Of a stretch of 50,841 bases of DNA, positions 1,784 through 33,472 are shown piece by piece. The position numbers and the translations under genes are program-made. Within the stretch, counting starts at the first letter, position 1. Each line of letters begins with the position of its first letter. The DNA is from Deltaproteobacteria bacterium (GTDB lineage Bacteria; Desulfobacterota; BSN033; UBA1163), in the NCBI GenBank assembly GCA_037441725.1, contig JBBIRT010000003.1:1-50841 (forward strand), in the 5' to 3' direction. The notes under the pieces were generated by a model, which saw only the letters and a program-made list of their open reading frames with translations, was not told where the DNA came from and made no database searches.

Positions 1784-3007
1784 ATGCATTATGACCTCCT
1801 CATTATAGGGACAGGGCTCTCAGGATTAATGGCTGCAAAAGCTGCGGTCGATTTGGGTAAAAAGATTCTCATTCTTGGAAAGGGAATAGGTTCCCTTTCT
1901 CTCTTTTCAAATTCGATTGATCTTTTGGGCCCCTCACAACAAGGGAGGACAATGGAAGAGAACCTTTCTCTATGGATAAAAAATCACCCCGACCACCCAT
2001 ATTCAAAGGTGGGTCTAAAGGGAATTGAGGATTCCCTTTCTTCTTTTCTTTCTCTCTTTCCACCTCCTTATTCATTCAAGGCATTGGGTCGAAGGAACTC
2101 TCTTATTCCAACAGCCGCAGGAACCCTACGCCCTACCTATCTTATACCTGAAACAATGGCAGAAGGAGTTTCCTTTCCTAACGGGAAAACCCTGATTGTA
2201 GGAATTAAAGGATATAAAGATTTTTATCCCCATTATGTAGCGGATCAAATGAAGTGCCGAGGGATTACCATCTCTCTCACAGATTTTCCAAATCCAGGAG
2301 AAACAGCAAATGCTCTGGCAAGGCTGATGGAAAAAAAATCTTTTAGACAAGAAATCGCAAGCAAGATAAAAGAACACTTCTATGGAGAAAGTCGAATTGG
2401 ATTCCCTGCCCTTTTAGGACTTCATAACCCTATGGAGGTGAAGGATGATTTAGAGAGACTTATTGGAACTAAGATCTTTGAAATCCCCACTCTCCCCCCA
2501 TCCATTCCAGGAATGAGAATCTTTTACCGTTTTAAAGAATGGTTGGCCCATAAGGGAGTTCCTCTCCTTTTGGGTTCCTCTGTGAAAAATGGAATCATAA
2601 AAGGGAAAAGATGTGTTGCAATCCATATCTCTCATCCTCCACTGATGACCACTTACTCTGCGGATCGTTACCTCCTGGCTACTGGCCGTTTTACGGGAGG
2701 AGGTCTCTGGGCTGATAGGGAAAGGATTTCTGAGCCCATCTTTAATCTTCCTGTCAAGCAACCTGAAACACGAGAGGAATGGTTCAGAAGCCACTTCTTT
2801 GATTCTTTATCTCACCCCATTCATCAAGCAGGAATTATGGTCAATTCGTCCTTTCAACCCATCGATGAAGGGGGAAATCTCATCTTAGAAAACGTCTGGG
2901 TAGCAGGGACGATTTTGGCTCACCATAACTGGATGGATGAAAAATCGAGGGAAGGGATTGAGATTGCTACAGGATATATGGCAGCAAGATATGCCTTGAG
3001 TACTTGA
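1784..3007 (+). CDS. glpB: anaerobic glycerol-3-phosphate dehydrogenase subunit B
   Basis: N-terminal dinucleotide fold LLIIGTGLSGLMAA. Its position between glpA and glpC matches the canonical glpABC order. Confidence 0.8.
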   Translation: MHYDLLIIGTGLSGLMAAKAAVDLGKKILILGKGIGSLSLFSNSIDLLGPSQQGRTMEENLSLWIKNHPDHPYSKVGLKGIEDSLSSFLSLFPPPYSFKALGRRNSLIPTAAGTLRPTYLIPETMAEGVSFPNGKTLIVGIKGYKDFYPHYVADQMKCRGITISLTDFPNPGETANALARLMEKKSFRQEIASKIKEHFYGESRIGFPALLGLHNPMEVKDDLERLIGTKIFEIPTLPPSIPGMRIFYRFKEWLAHKGVPLLLGSSVKNGIIKGKRCVAIHISHPPLMTTYSADRYLLATGRFTGGGLWADRERISEPIFNLPVKQPETREEWFRSHFFDSLSHPIHQAGIMVNSSFQPIDEGGNLILENVWVAGTILAHHNWMDEKSREGIEIATGYMAARYALST

Positions 3008-3065
3008 ATCTTTCTATTCTAAAATCTTAATCAAGGAGCTAATCTCCAAGGTCTGAAATCAAACC

Positions 3066-4280
3066 ATGATCTTAGATCACGATAGGCTGCTTAAAAAAAA
3101 CGCAGATAGATGTATTCGTTGTTCCACCTGTATGGCAGTTTGCCCTGTTGCCCGGGTCACTCCAAAATTTCCTGGCCCGAAGCAGGCAGGCCCTGGGGCT
3201 GAAAGATTTAGAAGATCAGGTGATCCCTCCGTGGACTCTTGGATAGACCTCTGCCTTGGATGTCACCTCTGTGAGATGGTCTGTTCTTCTGGGGTAAATA
3301 TCTCTGAATTAAACCTGATGGCCAAAGCAAAATATCTCGACGAAAAAGGAAGACCATTAAGAGATTGGTTTCTCACCCATTTCTACCTTTTCGGTCGGCC
3401 TGGATCACTTTTTTCTCCCCTTATCAATCTTCTCTCCAAGAATGCTCCCATCAAAAGGTTGATTGAAATAATTTTAAAAATAGAAAGGAAGAGAGAGTTT
3501 CCGAGTTATGAATCTTCAACTTTCATCCAATGGTTTAAAAAACGACGTTCCAAAGGGACGAAAAAAGTGGGTTACTTTTTTGGATGTTATACGAATACAA
3601 ATGAGGTAGATGTGGGGAAAGCTACTGTTCAAGTGCTTGAGGCCAATGGATTTGAAGTGATTCTTCCTCCCCAACACTGCTGTGGCATCCCGATGCTCGG
3701 GAATGGAGACTTCAAAGGGGCAAGGAAGATGGCGAATTATAATGTCCCCTCCCTTCTTCATAGCATTCGCTCAGGCCATGACATCATCTTTTCTTCCACC
3801 AGTTGTGGTTATATGATTAAATATGAATACACCCATCTCTTATCTGTTCAGGGGGCAGACCAGGTGGCTGAACATCTTTATGACATCTTTGAATTTCTTA
3901 GAAATTTAAATGAATCCAAAGCATTAAATCACCAACTTAAGGCGTTGAATATGAAGGCTGCTTACTTTATCCCCTGCCATTTAAAGGCCTTGCAAATTGG
4001 TCTTCCTGCCCTTGAGATCCTTCGACTCATCCCTGGCCTTCGTACTGAAATCATCGAAGCCGATTGCTGTGGAATGGGGGGGACTTACGGTTTTAAGAAA
4101 GAAAGATACGAAATCTCCCAGGAGATTGGAAGGGACTTGGTAGAGGAAATTGATCGCCTCAAACCGGATTTGGTTCTCTCAGATTGTGAGGGTTGCCGTG
4201 TACAAATAAGGCACTTGACAGGGTTAAAGGTTTTTCACCCCATTCAAGTTTTAAGGGATGCCCTCATAAAATCAAGATAA
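3066..4280 (+). CDS. glpC: anaerobic glycerol-3-phosphate dehydrogenase subunit C (Fe-S / CCG-domain protein)
   Basis: Two ferredoxin-type clusters (CIRCSTCMAVCP, CLGCHLCEMVC) and two CCG motifs (CCGIPM, CCGMGG). Confidence 0.85.
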   Translation: MILDHDRLLKKNADRCIRCSTCMAVCPVARVTPKFPGPKQAGPGAERFRRSGDPSVDSWIDLCLGCHLCEMVCSSGVNISELNLMAKAKYLDEKGRPLRDWFLTHFYLFGRPGSLFSPLINLLSKNAPIKRLIEIILKIERKREFPSYESSTFIQWFKKRRSKGTKKVGYFFGCYTNTNEVDVGKATVQVLEANGFEVILPPQHCCGIPMLGNGDFKGARKMANYNVPSLLHSIRSGHDIIFSSTSCGYMIKYEYTHLLSVQGADQVAEHLYDIFEFLRNLNESKALNHQLKALNMKAAYFIPCHLKALQIGLPALEILRLIPGLRTEIIEADCCGMGGTYGFKKERYEISQEIGRDLVEEIDRLKPDLVLSDCEGCRVQIRHLTGLKVFHPIQVLRDALIKSR

Positions 4281-4350
4281 GCAAGATCTTACAAAGAAGA
4301 AAATATTTTATTGGATTTTTTATAAAATAGAGGTTAATATAATAAAGAAA

Positions 4351-4450
4351 TCTCCGAGCCATTTCCCTAAACCCAAACTGCTTTGGATAAGGGAGATGGC
4401 CGTCAGGGCATGATTGGAAACGATCATACCTCCCGTGTTTGGAAAGGAGA
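4351..4450 (+). promoter_or_regulatory. Moco (molybdenum cofactor) riboswitch aptamer
   Basis: The 5' arm UCUCCGAGCC pairs with the 3' GGAAAGGAGA. There is a CCUCCC element, a CCCUAA...GGAUAAGGG receptor-like internal helix and a GGAAAC (GNRA-type) capped hairpin. It lies directly upstream of moaA, and a TATAAT at 4338-4343 would place the transcription start at the aptamer 5' end. Confidence 0.72.
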
Positions 4451-4466
4451 TGTGAGAGGCTCAATG

Positions 4467-4563: not shown

Positions 4564-5547
4564 ATGTTGTTAGATCATTATAAGCGAAAAATTGATTATC
4601 TCCGAATATCATTAACGGACCGGTGTAACTTAAGATGCCGTTATTGCATGCCTGAAGAGGGGATTCCTCTGATTCCCCACGAAGAGATCTTAACCTTTGA
4701 AGAGATTTTAAGGGTAGTTCGTATCTTTGCTAAGGAGGGTATTTCTAATTTGATGTTTACAGGAGTTGAACCCCTTGTTCGTAAAGGATTCATCTATTTT
4801 ATATCCCTCCTCTCACAAATCGATGGGCTTAAAGACCTTAGCCTCACCACGAATGGAGTTCTTCTAAAAGGATTAGCTTCCGAACTTAAAAGGGCAGGTC
4901 TGAAAAGAGTCAACATCAGTCTGGATTCACTGAAAAAAGAGAAATTCCATCAAATGACTCGAAGGGACCATTTTGAGCAGGTTTGGGCTGGAATAGAGGA
5001 AGCATTGAGAGTAGAGCTCTTTCCTGTCAAGATCAATATGGTGGTGATTCGAGGACTCAATGATGATGAAATTGAAGCCTTTGCCCGACTAACCCTCAAT
5101 CTTCCTCTGGTTGTCCGATTCATCGAATATATGCCTTCTGGAAATGGGGACAATTGGAGAGAACGTGATCTTATTCCTATCCCGATGATAAAGAGCCGCA
5201 TTGAAAATATTGGAAAACTGATACCCATCCCCTCAGACTCGTGGGATGGTCCGGCAAAAAGATTTCGAATGGAGGGAGGCATTGGTGAAATTGGGTTGAT
5301 TGGCCCTATCAGTAGCCATTTCTGTGAGAATTGTAATCGCCTCCGACTCACTCCTGATGGAAAGATCCGAAATTGCCTCTTTTCGGATGAAGAGATCGAT
5401 ATAAAAGAGATTCTTAGGAATGGAGGATCTGCCCTGGATTTAAAAGAAAAACTGTTGATTGCTCTGAAAAGAAAGCCAGCTGGGCATTTCATCAACACCC
5501 CCCAATTTAAAAAATGCCAGAGAAATATGTCGGCGATTGGAGGATGA
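4564..5547 (+). CDS. moaA: GTP 3',8-cyclase (radical SAM)
   Basis: CNLRCRYC radical-SAM motif, a C-terminal Cys cluster (CENCNRLRLT) and typical length (327 aa). Confidence 0.95.
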   Translation: MLLDHYKRKIDYLRISLTDRCNLRCRYCMPEEGIPLIPHEEILTFEEILRVVRIFAKEGISNLMFTGVEPLVRKGFIYFISLLSQIDGLKDLSLTTNGVLLKGLASELKRAGLKRVNISLDSLKKEKFHQMTRRDHFEQVWAGIEEALRVELFPVKINMVVIRGLNDDEIEAFARLTLNLPLVVRFIEYMPSGNGDNWRERDLIPIPMIKSRIENIGKLIPIPSDSWDGPAKRFRMEGGIGEIGLIGPISSHFCENCNRLRLTPDGKIRNCLFSDEEIDIKEILRNGGSALDLKEKLLIALKRKPAGHFINTPQFKKCQRNMSAIGG

Positions 5548-5619
5548 GGAAAATTCAGAATCAAAAGTTATGCATCATTAATTGAATAAATTCGCTATGC
5601 GAATTTGTTGGAGGTTTCG

Positions 5620-6114
5620 ATGTCAAGGCTTACACACTTTGATGAGCAGGGTCAGGCGAAGATGGTTGATGTGAGTGATAAAGAGGAAACTTTAAGAGAG
5701 GCTGTGGTACGAGGATCTATCTTTATGAATCCAGAAACCTTTAAAAAGATTACCTCAGGAAAGATCGCAAAGGGAGATGTATTTTCCGTTGCCAAAGTTG
5801 CAGGGATGATGGCGGCAAAGAAGACTTCAGAGCTTATTCCCATGTGCCACCCTCTCAACCTCACTCATGTGGAGATCAATTTCTTCCCTTTTAAAAAGGA
5901 AAACCGAATTGATATTGAATCAAAAGTGAAGATCAAAGCCAAGACAGGGGTTGAGATGGAAGGATTTGTTGCCGTAGCGGCTGCTGGCCTTACCATCTAT
6001 GACATGTGTAAAGCCATTGACCGAGGGATGGTTATCTCTAATATCCATCTGGTTAAAAAGGCAGGGGGAAAGAGTGGTACATATTTGGCAAAAGGCAAGG
6101 GGCATAAAGCATAG
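5620..6114 (+). CDS. moaC: cyclic pyranopterin monophosphate synthase
   Basis: Conserved MVDV, IPMCHPL and EMEGFVA blocks. GGAGG lies 5 nt upstream of ATG 5620. The ORF track starts at TTG 5605. Confidence 0.9.
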   Translation: MSRLTHFDEQGQAKMVDVSDKEETLREAVVRGSIFMNPETFKKITSGKIAKGDVFSVAKVAGMMAAKKTSELIPMCHPLNLTHVEINFFPFKKENRIDIESKVKIKAKTGVEMEGFVAVAAAGLTIYDMCKAIDRGMVISNIHLVKKAGGKSGTYLAKGKGHKA

Positions 6115-6162
6115 GGTAATTTCCTTTTTTACCCTTTGCCCTATGCCTATTAGGGAGAGGTC

Positions 6163-6609
6163 ATGAAACAGATTCAGCGTGGCAAAGTCCTTGCCGTAAA
6201 TATCAGTGAAGATAAGGGAACGAAGAAGACGAATATTCAATCCTGTACCTTGCTGAAAGATTTCGGTTTTAAAGGGGATGCCCATGCAGGAAATTGGCAT
6301 AGGCAGGTCAGTCTTTTAGCAAACGAATCGATTGAAAAAATGAAAATGAAAGGTCTGAAGGTCGGCTACGGAGATTTCGCAGAAAACATCACCACAGAAG
6401 GCATTGATCTCGTTCACCTGCCAATTGGTACAGAAATTCGGATTGGAAACTCAGCCCTCCTTCGGGTCACCCAAATTGGAAAGGAATGTCATCAGCGCTG
6501 TGCCATCTATTACCAGTCAGGAGATTGTGTTATGCCCAGGGAAGGAATCTTTGCTGAGGTCTTAAAAGAGGGTGAAGTGAAGGTAGGAGATGAAATCGTC
6601 ATTGGTTGA
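6163..6609 (+). CDS. MOSC domain-containing protein
   Basis: 148 aa with the GDAHAG...RQVSLL...ENITTEGIDL...VTQIGKECH pattern typical of small MOSC proteins found in moa operons. Confidence 0.75.
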   Translation: MKQIQRGKVLAVNISEDKGTKKTNIQSCTLLKDFGFKGDAHAGNWHRQVSLLANESIEKMKMKGLKVGYGDFAENITTEGIDLVHLPIGTEIRIGNSALLRVTQIGKECHQRCAIYYQSGDCVMPREGIFAEVLKEGEVKVGDEIVIG

Positions 6610-6611
6610 TC

Positions 6612-6666
6612 GGTTTATTGAGTCTATGGGGTTCATTGAGTTCCTTGGGTGAATCGAGTTTATTGG
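6612..6666. repeat. degenerate 18-19-bp tandem repeat x3
   Basis: The units are GGTTTATTGAGTCTATGG, GGTTCATTGAGTTCCTTGG and GTGAATCGAGTTTATTGG. The GGTTCATTG core is shared with the 14-bp array at 41879. Confidence 0.4.
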
Positions 6667-6708
6667 ATTTCTTTGGTTTCAAATCAATGAACACGGTAAA
6701 GGAATGGA

Positions 6709-7203
6709 ATGGTTTTCAAAGTAGCGATTTTGACTATTAGTGATAGAGGGTCAAAGGGTGAACGAGAAGATTCAAGTGGTCCTCTCATCCAAGAGATGAT
6801 CAAGGATCTCCCTGGTAAGGTCATCCATTATGAAATCATTCCGGATGAGAAAGAGATGATCACCGAAGCCTTAAAAAAGAGCGCAGATCAACTCAAGGCA
6901 GATCTCATCCTCACCACTGGAGGGACAGGATTAAGCCCCCGAGACGTCACCCCTGATGCTACCTTGAAAGTGATTGAAAAAGAGGTCCCTGGTTTTTCAG
7001 AAGCGATGAGGGCTGAAAGTTTAAAGAAGACTCCTCACGCCATGATCTCGAGGGCTGTGAGTGGTATTCGAGGAGAAAGCCTAATCGTTAATCTCCCAGG
7101 AAGTCCAAAAAGTGTGAGGGAAAACCTTAGGGTCATCTTGCCTGCCCTTCCCCACGCCCTCTCCAAATTAAAGGGAGATAAATCTGAATGTGGTCAGGAA
7201 TAA
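6709..7203 (+). CDS. moaB: MogA/MoaB family molybdenum cofactor biosynthesis protein
   Basis: TISDRGS...TTGGTGLSPRDVTP...INLPGSP signature, 164 aa. Confidence 0.85.
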   Translation: MVFKVAILTISDRGSKGEREDSSGPLIQEMIKDLPGKVIHYEIIPDEKEMITEALKKSADQLKADLILTTGGTGLSPRDVTPDATLKVIEKEVPGFSEAMRAESLKKTPHAMISRAVSGIRGESLIVNLPGSPKSVRENLRVILPALPHALSKLKGDKSECGQE

Positions 7204-28960: not shown

Positions 28961-29374
28961 TTAAAAGGACTTCAATTCCTGGGTTCCCTTTTGGTAACCA
29001 TAATTTTTCACAATCCCCTCTTTATCAAAAAGAATGACCAGAGCATCTTTTTTCTGTTGAATTCGTGTATATTGAAATAGAAGTAAGTTGGTAAAGTAAG
29101 GCTCTTCAATAGTTATCTTAGAAGAGTTCTTACGAAGATAGACATAGATAAAGACGTCTCCATCATATTGTCTTTGAATCCGTTCAGGAGGCCCGAAGAT
29201 CTCCAGAATTTCTCCTTTGGTCGTGGAACCGGGGATGATCTTTTCCTTCGGATCTGATTTTATCTCAGAACCAACATAAACCCTTCCAAGACTACAGCTG
29301 GAGATGATGAATCCCAAAATGGCTATGAGGAAAAAGGTTCTAATGCAGCTCATCTGTTCCTTTTCGGAACCCAT
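28961..29374 (-). CDS. small lipoprotein with a BamE/SmpA_OmlA-like motif
   Basis: Signal peptide with lipobox (FIISSC) and an IIPGSTTKGEILEIFGPP block. It is a paralogue of the upstream gene. Confidence 0.6.
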   Translation of the reverse strand: MGSEKEQMSCIRTFFLIAILGFIISSCSLGRVYVGSEIKSDPKEKIIPGSTTKGEILEIFGPPERIQRQYDGDVFIYVYLRKNSSKITIEEPYFTNLLLFQYTRIQQKKDALVILFDKEGIVKNYGYQKGTQELKSF

Positions 29375-29774
29375 AAAATTTTACCCTTTCATTTTCATCA
29401 AGAAAGATAACCAAATGATCCGACTTCACCTTCGCTTCCACATAATTGATTAGGATGAAGACAATGGCTCGAATATTACCCTGATTATATTGATAGGATA
29501 GGATATTGGCAAATGGATAGCTGGTAAGAGGTTCTCGGGTTACATCTATTTCTCTAAGAATCTCATTGAAAATGGTAGGGCTGATATAGTTCTGTGGAGG
29601 CCCAAACCAACTGATGATCTCCGATTTGGTTGTAACCCCGGGTAGGATCTCCCTGATCTTTTCTTCCGATATTTTTGGGCCCTCATAATAGCGTCCAATG
29701 ACACACCCTCCCAGAAGGATTACAATAAAAAAAATCCAAATGATCTTTTGATAAAATTCAAAACCCCTCTTCAT
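29340..29774 (-). CDS. small lipoprotein with a BamE/SmpA_OmlA-like motif
   Basis: Signal peptide with lipobox (LLGGC) and an ILPGVTTKSEIISWFGPP block. It overlaps the next gene. Confidence 0.6.
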   Translation of the reverse strand: MKRGFEFYQKIIWIFFIVILLGGCVIGRYYEGPKISEEKIREILPGVTTKSEIISWFGPPQNYISPTIFNEILREIDVTREPLTSYPFANILSYQYNQGNIRAIVFILINYVEAKVKSDHLVIFLDENERVKFYGFRKGTDELH

Positions 29775-29912: not shown

Positions 29913-31109
29913 TTACTGGCTCGGCCCTATTTTATATTTGTCTGCCAACTCTTTAAACCCTGGAAGCGACCTTTCAATCACTTTTCTCTCGACCGCGTAG
30001 GCAATTCTGAAATACCCTGGTTTTCCAAACCCCCTACCTGGAACCGTCAAGATCCGTTTTGAAAGCAATTCCTTCACAAAAACCAAATCATCTTCAATGG
30101 GACTCTTTGGAAATAGATAGAAAGCCCCTTGGGGCTTCACCATTTGGTAACCGAATGAGGTCAAAGCCTCATAAAAGAGATCTCTCTTTTCTTCGTATTC
30201 TCTGACATCCACCGAATTCTTCTGAAGTGGGGCAACCAATCTCTGCATCAAGGCAGGGGCATTAATGAATCCAAGGATTCGATTGCTAAAAATCATGGCC
30301 GAGATCAGTTCATCCCCACCCTCACATAGGGGGTTGACTGCGATGTAACCAATCCTCTCGCCAGGAAGAGAAAGATCCTTGGAATGGGAGGTAACCCGAA
30401 TGGAATGGGGATAATATTGGAAAACTATTGGAATCTGAAGGTGATCAAAGACAATCCGACGGTAAGCCTCATCTGTGATAAGGTAAAGCGTCTTTTGAAG
30501 CTCCTGACTCTTCTCTTTGAGTAATCTTCCTAAGGCTTCAATTGAGTCGTGGGGATATACCACTCCTGTTGGGTTGTTAGGAGAATTGATCAGAATGGCT
30601 TTGGTCTTCTGATTGATTGCCTTTTCAATCTCCTTCAAGTTGAGTGAAAAGTCCTCATTGGTCTCAGCCAGATGGATTTGGCCCCCTGAATTTTCAATAT
30701 AGAATTTAAATTCCATAAAGTAGGGAGAAGGAACAACCACTTCCTCCCCCTCATCCAAGATGGCCTTAAAGACCACATTAAGTCCTCCTGCCTCTCCCAC
30801 TGTCATGATGACATGATTCTCATTAAAAGGAAGCCCAGATTCCTCTTCCAGATACTCTGCAATCATCTTCCTTGTCTCACTATAACCACAATTAGGCATA
30901 TATCGATGCATTCCAGGGATGGGAGAATCAGCAAGAGACTTTAGAGCCCTCTTCAGTGACTCTGGAGGTTCTAAATTTGGATTCCCCAGTGAGAAATCGA
31001 AGACATTTTCCTCTCCATAAAGACGCCTCATCTCCTCGCCCTCTTCAAACATCCTTCTGATCCAGGAAGCACTGTTCAATGCGTTCATTATCTTTTTAGA
31101 AATGGCCAT
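29913..31109 (-). CDS. class I/II pyridoxal-phosphate-dependent aminotransferase (AspC-like)
   Basis: SHSKDLSLPGERIGY (PLP-binding Lys) and NSPNNPTG motifs, 398 aa. SD AAAGGGG precedes the ATG. Confidence 0.88.
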   Translation of the reverse strand: MAISKKIMNALNSASWIRRMFEEGEEMRRLYGEENVFDFSLGNPNLEPPESLKRALKSLADSPIPGMHRYMPNCGYSETRKMIAEYLEEESGLPFNENHVIMTVGEAGGLNVVFKAILDEGEEVVVPSPYFMEFKFYIENSGGQIHLAETNEDFSLNLKEIEKAINQKTKAILINSPNNPTGVVYPHDSIEALGRLLKEKSQELQKTLYLITDEAYRRIVFDHLQIPIVFQYYPHSIRVTSHSKDLSLPGERIGYIAVNPLCEGGDELISAMIFSNRILGFINAPALMQRLVAPLQKNSVDVREYEEKRDLFYEALTSFGYQMVKPQGAFYLFPKSPIEDDLVFVKELLSKRILTVPGRGFGKPGYFRIAYAVERKVIERSLPGFKELADKYKIGPSQ

Positions 31110-31138
31110 CTTAAATCCCCTTTCTATTCCCTCATGTC

Positions 31139-31169
31139 AAAAAAAAAGCCATAAGGTTGCCCCTATGGC
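31139..31169 (-). terminator. attenuator terminator in the aminotransferase leader
   Basis: The minus-strand RNA reads GCCAUAGGG-GCAA-CCUUAUGGC (9 bp including one G-U pair, GNRA loop), followed by U9 (31147-31139). It lies 30 nt upstream of the start codon. Confidence 0.75.
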
Positions 31170-31227
31170 CTTAAACGAAAAAGCCATGGGGCCATTTAGG
31201 TCACCCATGGCTTCTCAATCCATTTAA

Positions 31228-31290
31228 TCAGGATTGAAATGATGGATGACCCTTGCCAAAATAGTAAAAATAAAAGTAAAAGTTAAACAT
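31228..31290 (-). CDS. leader peptide MFNFYFYFYYFGKGHPSFQS (20 aa, 9 of its first 11 residues are Phe or Tyr)
   Basis: GGAG lies 5 nt upstream of the ATG. The ORF sits between a promoter-like element and the alternative-helix region. Its coding RNA GGUCAUCCAU (31251-31242) pairs with AUGGGUGACC (31208-31199). Confidence 0.65.
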   Translation of the reverse strand: MFNFYFYFYYFGKGHPSFQS

Positions 31291-31311
31291 ATTCACTCCA
31301 CTTTTGTCTCA

Positions 31312-31342
31312 ATTATAAAACACAATAAAAGATCATTGTCAA
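31312..31342 (-). promoter_or_regulatory. sigma70-like promoter for the leader and aminotransferase transcript
   Basis: On the minus strand: TTGACA (31342-31337), then either TATAAT (31317-31312) with a 19-nt spacer or TTTATA with a 17-nt spacer. Confidence 0.45.
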
Positions 31343-31350
31343 GGGAAAAT

Positions 31351-31379
31351 TTGACTTTTTATAAAATTCCCTTTAATAT
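31351..31379 (+). promoter_or_regulatory. sigma70-like promoter for the EF-G paralogue operon
   Basis: TTGACT (31351-31356), 17-nt spacer, TAATAT (31374-31379). Confidence 0.55.
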
Positions 31380-31417
31380 TGCGAAGATATATTATCTTCC
31401 AATTTATGAGAAATGAA

Positions 31418-33472
31418 ATGGTCGGAGAAAAACGACTGATTCGGACAAGAAATATTGGATTCATGGCCCATATTGATGCAGGGAAAACAACCGTCACAGA
31501 AAGGGTCCTCTATTACACCAAGAAGATCCATCGTATGGGAGAGGTGGATGACGGTACAGCCGTGATGGATTGGATGCCACAGGAGCAAGAAAGGGGGATT
31601 ACCATCACCTCTGCTGTGACCAAAGTGGAATGGAAAGGAAATACGATTCATATCATCGACACCCCAGGACACGTAGATTTCACCATTGAGGTTGAACGTT
31701 CATTACGGGTGCTTGATGGAACGATTGCTATCTTCAGTGCTGTGGAGGGAGTTGAACCTCAATCGGAAACGGTTTGGCACCAGGCAGACAAATACCGAGT
31801 CCCCAAAATCGCTTTCATCAATAAAATGGATCGTATCGGAGCCGAATTTTTCGGGACAGTAAAGATGATGATCGACCGCTTAGGGACAAATCCCCTGGTT
31901 ATCCAGATTCCTATTGGAGCAGAAGATCGATTTATTGGGGTCATCGATCTGATCCGATCAAAGGGAATTGTTTGGGACGAACATAGTTTAGGGAGTGAAT
32001 TTAAAGAAATCTCTATTCCAAAGGAAATGGAGTCAACGGTCTATCTCCATCGATCCAGGCTGATGGAGTCCATCGCTGAGTTAGATGAACATCTAATAGA
32101 GAAATATATTAATGGAGAGGAAATCTCTGAATCTGAAATGAAATCTGTTCTTCGGAAGGCAACCCTCTCCATGAAGGCCGTCCCAGTCTTATGTGGGGCA
32201 GCCCTAAGGAATCAAGGGATTCAGCCACTCATTGATGCGATTGTGGACTATCTTCCCTCTCCTTTGGATATCCCTCCGGTTGAAGGAACCCATCCCATCA
32301 CAGGAGAAAAGGAATTTCGAATGGCAAAGGATGAAGAATCCTTTACCTCCTTAGCCTTTAAAATCATGATGGATGAAGGAAGGAAGCTGGTTTATTTACG
32401 GATCTATTCAGGGATCCTGAAAGTTGGAATGGAGGTCTATAACCCTCGTTTGAAGAAGGGAGAGAAGATCTCTCGAATCTTCCAGATGCATGCCCATCAG
32501 CGAACTCGAGTGGAGGAGGCCCGAACCGGAGAAATTGTAGCGGTCATGGGATTAAAAGAGACGACGACTGGAGATACCCTCTGTGATCGAAGTCGCCCTA
32601 TTCTCCTTGAGCCGATTGATTTTTATAAACCTGTGATGTCTGTGGCCGTTGAACCAAAAACCAGTGGAGATCAAGACAAATTGAATGAATCTCTTATGAA
32701 GCTGAGTGAGGAAGACCCCACCTTTCATGTAAAATTTGATGAAGATACTGGTCAGACCATCATCTCAGGAATGGGAGAACTCCACTTAGATGTGCTGGTG
32801 AATCGCCTGATGACTGAATACCATTTAGAGGTCAACGTTGGGAGACCACAGGTGGTTTATCGAGAGACAATTGAGAAAGAGGTTGAGACCTCTGCAAAAT
32901 TTATAAAAGAGATAGAGGAGGTTAAACATTACGCAGAGATCTTCCTTCGTCTTTCACCCCACCAAAGGGGAAAAGGGATTGAGTTTTATTCTGAGGTTTC
33001 AGAAGGAATCTTATCTCCAGGGAGCCTTCTGGCCATCGAAGAGGGGATCAGGGAATCCTCCACGGTAGGGGTGATCCTGGGTTATCCTATGACCGATATT
33101 CGAATAACGTTATTAAAAGCCGTTGTGGATCCAAATCATCCATCCTTACTTGCCCTCAAGGTTGCCTCTTCCAATGCCTTTCGGGAAGGCTGTCGTAAAG
33201 CCCAACCCGTGCTTATGGAACCCATGATGGAGGTCAATATCATCGTCCCTGAAGAGTTTATGGGTGAAGTGGTAGGAGATTTAAAGGCAAGAAAAAGCTC
33301 AGTGGAAGCCATTACTCCAAGAGGAAGGACCACCCTGATCAAAGCGATCTCCCCCTTGACCCGAATGTTCGGTTACTCCACCGATTTGAGATCTCTGACT
33401 CAAGGGAGAGGAACCTTTTCCATGCAATTTTCACATTATGACAAGGTATCAAATGAAAATGTTAGACGATGA
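31418..33472 (+). CDS. fusA: elongation factor G family GTPase (paralogue lying outside a str operon)
   Basis: [17 protein letters not shown] and NKMD motifs, about 684 aa. The start is ATG 31418 or 31406. The TTG at 31379 used by the ORF track lies inside the -10 element. Confidence 0.88.

Follow-up and report, generated by a model that had tools for sequence, protein, structure and literature searches.

The Escherichia coli leaders pheL-pheA and pheM-pheST each combine a short open reading frame (ORF) rich in Phe codons with alternative RNA helices and an intrinsic terminator, and sense charged tRNA through the position of the ribosome; in pheL, the paused ribosome frees segment 2, which then forms the 2:3 antiterminator (PMC3082878). 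Here we describe an element of this general class in a 50,841-nucleotide stretch of DNA from a deltaproteobacterium (assembly GCA_037441725.1, contig JBBIRT010000003.1, positions 1 to 50,841; this whole stretch is referred to as the window). The element lies on the minus strand at 31139-31342, upstream of a gene for a class-I pyridoxal phosphate (PLP)-dependent aminotransferase. With a probability of roughly 80%, we read it as a transcription attenuator of the ribosome-mediated, leader-peptide type that responds to charged tRNA-Phe and tRNA-Tyr and has this stand-alone PRK06836-type aminotransferase under its control; the enzyme would very probably be turned on when Phe or Tyr is short. Every defining feature of leader-peptide attenuators that can be tested in silico is present at this locus and its relatives.

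Several features distinguish the element from pheL and pheM. It mixes Phe and Tyr codons, comprises five segments rather than four with two tandem terminators, has an aminotransferase as its target and a member of the Thermodesulfobacteriota as its host, and matches no Rfam leader family even at E <= 10. At gathering score, a search of the whole window returned no leader, T-box or other riboswitch family in the attenuator region, and at E <= 10 the interval 30900-31500 gave no leader family and no T-box. The matches at this permissive threshold are weak and fall on terminator-like, unrelated small RNA models (suhB, 20.6 bits vs 41; BTnc231, 18 bits vs 80.4), as the first-pass annotation of this DNA, made from the sequence alone, had expected. 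That annotation had also likened the logic to that of the pheA and pheST leaders; relative to pheL, the predicted register is inverted. In trpL and pheL the antiterminator is 2:3, and it forms when a stalled ribosome sits on segment 1, whereas in the present element 2:3 is the predicted terminator and 1:2 the antiterminator.

A mixed Phe/Tyr leader on an aromatic-pathway gene has a precedent in Corynebacterium glutamicum, where aroR, a leader with the residues Phe-Tyr-Phe upstream of the aroF (3-deoxy-D-arabino-heptulosonate-7-phosphate (DAHP) synthase) operon, works by ribosome stalling and was reported to respond to Phe but not to Tyr (Neshat et al. 2014, as summarised in PMC11802643). The family reported here precedes DAHP synthase genes too. 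It belongs to a different phylum, however, and, compared by description rather than by sequence, aroR contains only three aromatic residues, as opposed to the 8-10 codons in a run in the present family; in that summary, no aminotransferase target is described for aroR. The T-box leaders of Firmicutes are alike in that one conserved RNA platform serves a regulon with a swappable specificity (a specifier codon there, a leader codon run here), but they bind tRNA directly and need no translation, and the Rfam searches above returned none. Aminotransferase genes do occur inside attenuated operons: ilvGMEDA, with Ile, Val and Leu codons in its leader, includes ilvE, and his includes hisC. In these operons, as here, the leader codon mix matches all the products that depend on the regulated enzymes; there, however, the aminotransferase gene is embedded in a long pathway operon, whereas here it is the sole gene or part of a tandem pair, and it belongs to another family and pathway. 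The first-pass claim that leader-peptide attenuation was not known for any aminotransferase gene was thus too broad, and it stands only for a stand-alone AspC-like or aromatic aminotransferase. In the literature searched, in which many subscription papers were beyond reach, we found no description of a Phe/Tyr leader of a stand-alone aminotransferase, of a palindrome-scaffold attenuator in Thermodesulfobacteriota or of a double-terminator relay. The class of mechanism is textbook; the architecture, its modular reuse and the functional labels that it provides for uncharacterised genes are new.

Anatomy and conservation of the leader

All leader features are read on the minus strand and numbered along the window. 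A -35 box, TTGACA (31337-31342), and a candidate -10 box, TATAAT (31312-31317), are separated by 19 nt and form the predicted leader promoter, whose transcription start is putative. A promoter scan does not list the pair because its spacer exceeds 18 nt. A Shine-Dalgarno sequence, GGAG (31296-31299), stands 5 nt ahead of the ATG at 31290, which opens the 20-codon leader ORF MFNFYFYFYYFGKGHPSFQS (31228-31290 with its stop, TGA at 31230-31228). Phe or Tyr is encoded at nine of codons 1-11, and these nine codons make up most of the regulatory run of codons 2-11 (31258-31287). The coordinates of TTGACA, GGAG, ATG and the ORF, as well as the count of Phe/Tyr (F/Y) codons, had been given in the first-pass annotation and are correct to the base.

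Five segments follow the codon run. Segment 1 (31241-31252), within the 3' part of the leader ORF, is the 5' arm of helix 1:2, the predicted antiterminator of the first terminator (T1); an inner hairpin (UUUCAAUCC/GGAUUGAGA, 31213-31239) stacks inside helix 1:2 and, in the window, holds the leader stop. Segment 2 (31198-31212) provides the 3' arm of 1:2 (AUGGGUGACC) and the 5' arm of T1 (AGCCAUGGG). Segment 3 with its U5 tract (31178-31192) provides the 3' arm of T1 (CCCAUGGCU, then UUUU) and the 5' arm of the antiterminator 3:4, while segment 4 (31159-31172) serves as the 3' arm of 3:4 and as the 5' arm of the second terminator (T2). The GCAA loop bases, segment 5 (CCUUAUGGC) and the U9 tract (31139-31158) constitute the 3' half of T2. 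Helix a (1:2) thus joins GGUCAUCCAU (31251-31242) to AUGGGUGACC (31208-31199); helix b (2:3) joins AGCCAUGGG (31212-31204) to CCCAUGGCU (31190-31182) and is followed by its own U5 tract (31182-31178); helix c (3:4) joins CCCCAUGGC (31191-31183) to GCCAUAGGGG (31169-31160) and is extended by RNAfold to 13 bp with one bulge; and helix d (4:5), GCCAUAGGG-GCAA-CCUUAUGGC followed by U9 (31169-31139), ends 29 nt ahead of the aminotransferase ATG at 31109. The U9 hairpin was called independently by a terminator scan.

Pairing of 1:2 excludes 2:3 and pairing of 3:4 excludes 4:5. The four mutually exclusive helices and the U9 terminator noticed in the first pass are all confirmed to the base. The four helices are also kept in relatives. 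Their roles need one amendment, since helix b had not been seen as a terminator: it has a U5 tract of its own, which makes two predicted tandem terminators, T1 with a stem of 9-12 bp and U5, and T2 with a stem of 10-12 bp and U9. Segments 2 to 5 are four near-copies of a self-complementary octamer, GCCAUGGC; because this octamer is its own reverse complement, each of the four segments is able to pair with either neighbour. The window contains a single match to the core pattern GCCATGGGTGN{3,16}CCCATGGC, and 100 shuffles contain none; a second copy of the scaffold was looked for in the window and not found.

A scan of a genome collection with the aminotransferase protein yielded 70 loci at 49-82% identity, all from metagenome-assembled genomes (MAGs) named Thermodesulfobacteriota, Syntrophaceae, Syntrophorhabdus or 'Deltaproteobacteria', together with one Planctomycetota. 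With a core-region profile, the attenuator element was found in 68 of the 70, complete with mini-ORF, F/Y run and four helices, the very features whose absence from relatives the first-pass annotation had named as evidence against its reading. The profile did not find it in L042, where the locus is cut by a contig end, nor in the Planctomycetota locus (L065, 49% identical), which has no F/Y run within 600 nt upstream of the gene. Mini-ORFs such as MFNFYFFYFYFGKGHP, MGSIFNFFYFYFYFDKGHP and MSYFYFFYFYFKKGHP are present upstream in nearly all loci of 71-82% identity, and leaders of the form MFNFYFFYFYFGKGHP-stop, or near variants, are still found where the proteins share as little as 52-57% identity. 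The Syntrophorhabdus clade has the element about 1.3 kb further upstream, ahead of a tandem pair of PRK06836 genes, with leaders such as MTDKVIFYGFFYFYFSGLHPGLILS. These tandem paralogues (L036-L064 and others, at about 1800-4190 of each locus; for instance L045:1806-2993 and 2998-4170) are 50-57% identical to the window enzyme and 2-6 nt apart, and may represent a division of labour, for example between Phe and Tyr or between different keto-acid substrates.

An alignment of 41 leader sequences (A1) shows which features of the translated part are maintained. A perfect TTGACA is present in all 41 loci at an equivalent distance upstream of the leader ATG, and an SD-like purine motif precedes the leader in 36 of the 41 relatives. 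As in the window, this box is part of a perfect TTGACA-19-TATAAT, as opposed to a spacing of 16-18 nt, in 11 of the 41 loci (among them L005, L006, L008, L012, L013, L016, L019, L033 and L039); either a weaker hexamer at a 17-nt spacing is the true -10 box, or the long spacer has itself been conserved. Over the 41 leaders, the F/Y run uses TTT 165 times, TTC 45 times, TAT 84 times and TAC 46 times; the amino acids are kept while the codons vary synonymously, which is the signature of selection on the encoded residues. One genome locus (L049) has a leader with WW. The stop lies exactly five codons past the last F/Y codon (x-x-G-H-P) in 33 of the 41 leaders, and this fixed distance places it directly at the 3' end of segment 1. 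We considered the conserved GHP-stop as a nascent-peptide or slow-termination signal and found this unnecessary, the codons GGU CAC CCA being segment 1 itself; distant members alter the C-terminus of the leader (HPG.., CPS, CLSLR, HSCR) but keep the pairing to GGGUG. The family thus shares a short ORF with a Shine-Dalgarno sequence, a start and a stop, and this ORF is predicted to be translated.

The presence of its own promoter, Shine-Dalgarno sequence, ORF and terminators might also indicate an independent small gene, for a hydrophobic F/Y-rich peptide or a small RNA, unrelated to the aminotransferase; attenuator-derived RNAs and peptides with functions in trans are known in Sinorhizobium (PMC7968998, PMC7298713). 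Such a gene would not be expected to lie always directly upstream of, and co-oriented with, a gene lacking a promoter of its own in between, as this unit does, nor to move with those genes across clades, including the tandem aminotransferase pair. We consider this explanation extremely unlikely; a role in trans could be additional to the role in cis, but would not replace it.

Helix pairing and ribosome-dependent folding

Among the 41 aligned sequences, the proportion of paired cells is 96.8% for helix 1:2, 91-98% for 3:4, 98.4% for 2:3 and 99.5% for 4:5, compared with 22-60% in controls whose partners were slid by 1-3 columns. Three pairs of helix 4:5 are changed on both sides. The inner hairpin of the relatives is equivalent but different in sequence, and all family members inspected retain the U-rich tail after T1. 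Segments 2 to 5 hardly vary, which leaves few compensatory changes; such invariance is expected, since each base serves two alternative pairings. The variable flanks were therefore examined in the wider family (about 136 distinct members) by comparing own with permuted partners, a permutation that ignores shared ancestry. Duplexes of segment 1 with its own segment 2 have a mean energy of -15.9 kcal/mol, as compared with -13.3 +/- 0.19 kcal/mol for permuted partners (0/200 as good), and the variable flanks of 3:4 and of 4:5 beat all 300 permutations. Four positions of segment 2 that lie 3' of GGGUG are variable, and their pairs with segment 1 include UA, GC, CG and AU. The search for compensatory changes in orthologues that the first-pass annotation had proposed thus gives a positive answer in the flanks, with weak column-wise covariation.

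This covariation also argues against another view of the GCCATGGC palindromes, namely that the four palindromic octamers between promoter and gene are DNA operators for a dimeric transcription factor and the RNA hairpins a by-product. Operators would not call for conserved U-tracts after both hairpins. Segment 1, which holds no copy of the palindrome, covaries with the part of segment 2 that flanks the palindrome; covariation is also seen in the flanks of 3:4 and of 4:5, and the sites are located 100-170 nt downstream of the promoter. We give this view next to no credence. A protein- or ligand-controlled attenuator, in which a regulator recognises the repeated GCCAUGG motifs and the mini-ORF is incidental, would account for the unusual invariance of segments 2-5, as four-fold palindromic-octamer repeats are expected of a repeated binding site. 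However, the double pairing duty of the bases predicts the same invariance. Moreover, nearly every locus retains the Shine-Dalgarno sequence, the ATG and the frame of the ORF, as well as the placement of its stop with respect to segment 1, and the codon run changes synonymously. Leader composition also switches with the downstream gene (see below), for which a regulator bound to the constant scaffold offers no explanation. We consider this alternative very unlikely.

The element is strongly structured. RNAfold gives the interval 31130-31310 a minimum free energy (MFE) of -61.9 kcal/mol, as compared with -39.8 +/- 4.2 kcal/mol for 200 dinucleotide shuffles (z = -5.25; 0/200 as good), and the MFE structure contains helix a, extended over the inner hairpin, together with helix c (13 bp). 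Median energies of the isolated hairpins in the 41 sequences are -28.0 kcal/mol for 1:2 with the inner hairpin, -17.9 for 2:3, -20.1 for 3:4 and -15.7 for 4:5, and in each of them the combination 1:2 + 3:4 exceeds 2:3 + 4:5 in stability. We relied on hairpin energies and on prefix folding, since the equilibrium MFE could not decide between 3:4 and 4:5 in the stalled state; prefixes of the window sequence were folded in transcription order from an assumed start at 31305, with ribosome masks. When no ribosome is present, or when codon 4 or 8 occupies the A site, helix 1:2 forms first and 3:4 after it, and neither T1 nor T2 is in place at its decision point. A ribosome stalled at codon 11, or one that has reached the stop, leads instead to both T1 (2:3 + U5) and T2 (4:5 + U9). 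In masked full-length MFE folding, a ribosome at the stop likewise leaves 2:3 + 4:5 in 40 of the 41 relatives.

The mechanism that we propose would begin at a sigma-70-type promoter, giving a short leader RNA with the F/Y mini-ORF followed by the five segments. When Phe and Tyr are both plentiful, the ribosome would reach the leader stop and cover segment 1; segment 2 would then pair with segment 3 to form T1, segment 4 with segment 5 to form T2, and transcription would stop ahead of the aminotransferase gene. When either amino acid is short, the ribosome would stall early in the F/Y run, at least two codons upstream of segment 1; as the first Phe codon is codon 2 and the first Tyr codon is codon 5, a starved ribosome would stop far upstream of segment 1. 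Helix 1:2 would then close a long stem over the inner hairpin, block T1 and free segment 3, which would pair with segment 4 as soon as this is made; provided that 3:4, once formed, is not displaced by segment 5, T2 would be blocked and RNA polymerase would read into the gene. Such a relay would let one decision, segment 1 free or covered, set both terminators. An untranslated leader of the pheL type terminates transcription; the predicted untranslated default here is the reverse, ON, and termination would require completed translation of the leader. Ribosome-mediated Phe/Tyr attenuation, in which a stall leaves helix a free to form and full translation covers it, had been suggested in the first pass and is supported by the comparative data and by the masked folding.

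Some of the folding results would also suit a classical register of opposite sign, in which a stalled ribosome covers segment 1 so that starvation terminates, fast release under sufficiency leads to 1:2 + 3:4, and a catabolic enzyme is induced by an excess of Phe/Tyr. A stall at the last F codon (codon 11) yields T1 + T2 in the masked folding, the ribosome-free RNA folds into the read-through form, and class-I aminotransferases are reversible. Yet segment 1 begins more than 20 nt after the first hungry codons (F 2, Y 5), where stalling leads to read-through in the folding, and the stop is on or just past segment 1 in 33 of the 41 relatives, so a terminating ribosome must cover segment 1. The scaffold also precedes DAHP synthase, which is unambiguously biosynthetic. 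We therefore regard a catabolic switch as very unlikely.

The same scaffold ahead of other genes

Scanning metagenome contigs with the exact pattern GCCATGGGTGN{3,16}CCCATGGCN{8,30}GCCAT gave at least 120 loci, whose downstream genes were classed by tblastn and NCBIfam. About nine of the 120 listed matches have no leader and were excluded as chance occurrences, which is about the number expected by our own estimate. The other listed matches have an aromatic-rich mini-ORF in the same register, and every recognisable leader is aromatic-rich. Counting genomes and metagenomes together, more than 150 instances of the element were recovered, which is a lower bound.

The composition of the leader follows the gene behind it. 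At least 81 loci precede a PRK06836 aminotransferase, with F- or F+Y-rich leaders except for three without a clear leader, and with W in one. At least 12 precede a DAHP synthase (NF006421/TIGR01361), and these leaders contain W in all cases, as F+Y+W in 11 and F+W in one. A PRK07777-like aminotransferase is found at at least four loci with Y6-8 and almost no F, a 306-aa outer-membrane-like protein at at least two with WWWW, an MBL-fold hydrolase at at least four with F6-7 and Y1-3, a LivK-like binding protein at at least two with F4-5 and Y1, and a molybdopterin oxidoreductase at at least one with F4 and Y5. The codon run thus matches the regulated pathway (F/Y, Y, W or F/Y/W): of the 12 listed matches ahead of DAHP synthase, the first common enzyme of the pathway, 11 have leader codons for Phe, Tyr and Trp alike, and the enzyme type of the window has those for Phe and Tyr. 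The case for the peptides as sensors of the cognate charged tRNAs rests most strongly on this match of leader to gene, as does the case for a PRK06836 enzyme that serves the supply of Phe and Tyr.

Some of the rarer targets deserve mention in their own right. The two Trp leaders (…NWWWWANRS… and …GWWWWTNRS…; L083:4050-4700, plus strand, and L129, minus strand, with the scaffold at about 1564-1615 in reversed coordinates) stand ahead of a 306-aa protein with a signal peptide, a beta-barrel-like sequence and no NCBIfam match, which may be a Trp-regulated outer-membrane channel. Tyr-only leaders (YYYYYY to YYYYYYYY) in L092, L099, L123 and L175 precede a PRK07777/PRK08912-like class-I aminotransferase whose scores fall short of the curated cut-offs and which shares 27-29% identity with the window enzyme; this suggests a Tyr-dedicated transaminase in some lineages. 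F-rich leaders (MQFRNFFFFYFYFNRAHPYP, MTRFNKYFFFFSFRRVHPCL) in L088, L118, L147 and L154 precede an MBL-fold metallo-hydrolase without an assigned function. In L087 and L185 the scaffold is found ahead of a LivK-like solute-binding protein, and in L159 ahead of a 720-aa molybdopterin oxidoreductase.

Considering all these loci jointly, we lean slightly towards an undescribed modular attenuator family that would wire an aromatic-amino-acid regulon in Thermodesulfobacteriota. One platform of four GCCAUGGC copies, acting as a domino chain of two antiterminators and two tandem terminators under inverted ribosome logic, would be reused by swapping the leader codon mix. That terminated leader RNAs might pair in trans with sister leaders through the common palindrome is pure speculation.

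The regulated aminotransferase and its surroundings

The regulated gene (29913-31109, minus strand) has its own Shine-Dalgarno sequence, GGGGA (31120-31116), and encodes a class-I PLP-dependent aminotransferase of 398 aa. The product matches NCBIfam NF005305 / PRK06836 at 564 bits (cut-off 376) over residues 1-393 of 398, and Pfam Aminotran_1_2 at 3.3e-52; the nearest solved structure is 3ELE, an aminotransferase without an assigned function. The enzyme scores alike against the Thermus thermophilus aspartate aminotransferase (AspAT; 165 bits) and the Pyrococcus horikoshii aromatic aminotransferase (147 bits), and its substrates are therefore not assignable from sequence alone. At the AspAT position occupied by Ser in the mutant chain 1B5O, the window enzyme and 3ELE both have Ala, a weak hint; we take this position to be Lys109, the binder of the distal carboxylate. 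Support for a role as an aromatic or prephenate aminotransferase comes from regulation, namely the F/Y leader and the scaffold in common with DAHP synthase. The enzyme would catalyse the transamination that Phe synthesis and Tyr synthesis have in common, with phenylpyruvate and 4-hydroxyphenylpyruvate, or else prephenate, as predicted substrates. The first-pass proposal of an aromatic aminotransferase thus stands as far as Phe and Tyr supply is concerned, while arylpyruvates and prephenate are not distinguished. In the closest genome locus (L001:4378-6906, minus strand), the genes convergent with the aminotransferase resemble by eye an indolepyruvate:ferredoxin oxidoreductase pair (636 and 205 aa), an arrangement absent from the window; this oxidoreductase acts on arylpyruvates.

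Several observations weigh against attenuation by Phe and Tyr at this locus. The 19-nt spacing of the -10 box from the -35 box is unusual, and the window leader is itself atypical: the usual stop is lost (TAA to TCA), and the ORF gains four codons and stops within the inner hairpin. The relatives are without exception MAGs or metagenome contigs. In the 41-sequence alignment, changes on both sides are found in only 5/21 and 3/19 pairs, with segments 2-5 nearly invariant. In full-length equilibrium folding, a mid-run stall gives 1:2 in 31 of the 41 sequences, yet the MFE retains 4:5 in 30 of the 41; equilibrium folding being ambiguous between 3:4 and 4:5, antitermination at T2 rests on a kinetic, co-transcriptional argument. 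The terminating ribosome would also have to dwell on segment 1 until segment 3 is transcribed. Finally, the PRK06836 family is without any characterised member, and no aromatic-pathway gene was found nearby, either in the window or in the 7-kb orthologous loci inspected.

The neighbours of the aminotransferase gene are a divergent, upstream paralogue of elongation factor G (EF-G), BirA, CoaX, major facilitator superfamily (MFS) transporters, a hybrid histidine kinase and two BamE-like lipoproteins. The EF-G gene (31379-33472, plus strand) is listed from the TTG at 31379; its orthologues start with MAGEKRL…, which matches an internal MVGEKRL of the window, and the real start is probably about 39 nt downstream, near 31418. 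A start there would leave about 75 nt to the leader -35 box and thus room for divergent promoters. Downstream of the aminotransferase, two small paralogous lipoprotein-like ORFs of 137 and 144 aa (28961-29374 and 29340-29774, minus strand) overlap by 35 nt; one has a sub-threshold match to the BamE domain, and there is otherwise no family assignment. Elsewhere in the window, a molybdenum (Moco)/tungsten-cofactor riboswitch (4340-4465, plus strand; Rfam RF01055, 76.5 bits vs a gathering score of 36) lies directly 5' of a row of moaA, moaC, MOSC-domain and MoCF_biosynth (Mog/MoaB-like) genes (ORFs 4564-7203, plus strand), which is an ordinary, known arrangement.

With an attenuator of this kind, the known range of leader-peptide regulation would come to include a little-studied phylum of syntrophic anaerobes, and an aminotransferase that stands alone would be a new type of target. 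Its architecture is testably unlike that of the textbook trp, phe and his systems, with two terminators under one ribosome decision, a palindromic relay and an untranslated state predicted to be ON. The more than 150 instances suffice for a covariance model and an Rfam entry. For the large, uncharacterised PRK06836 family, the leader provides a regulatory lead on its role, in Phe and Tyr supply, and the same kind of functional lead is available for the further genes behind W-, Y- or F-rich leaders. If the modular family outlined above is real, leader composition would be a readable label that assigns uncharacterised genes, such as those of the PRK06836 aminotransferase, the MBL-fold hydrolase and the porin-like protein, to the metabolism of Phe, Tyr or Trp.

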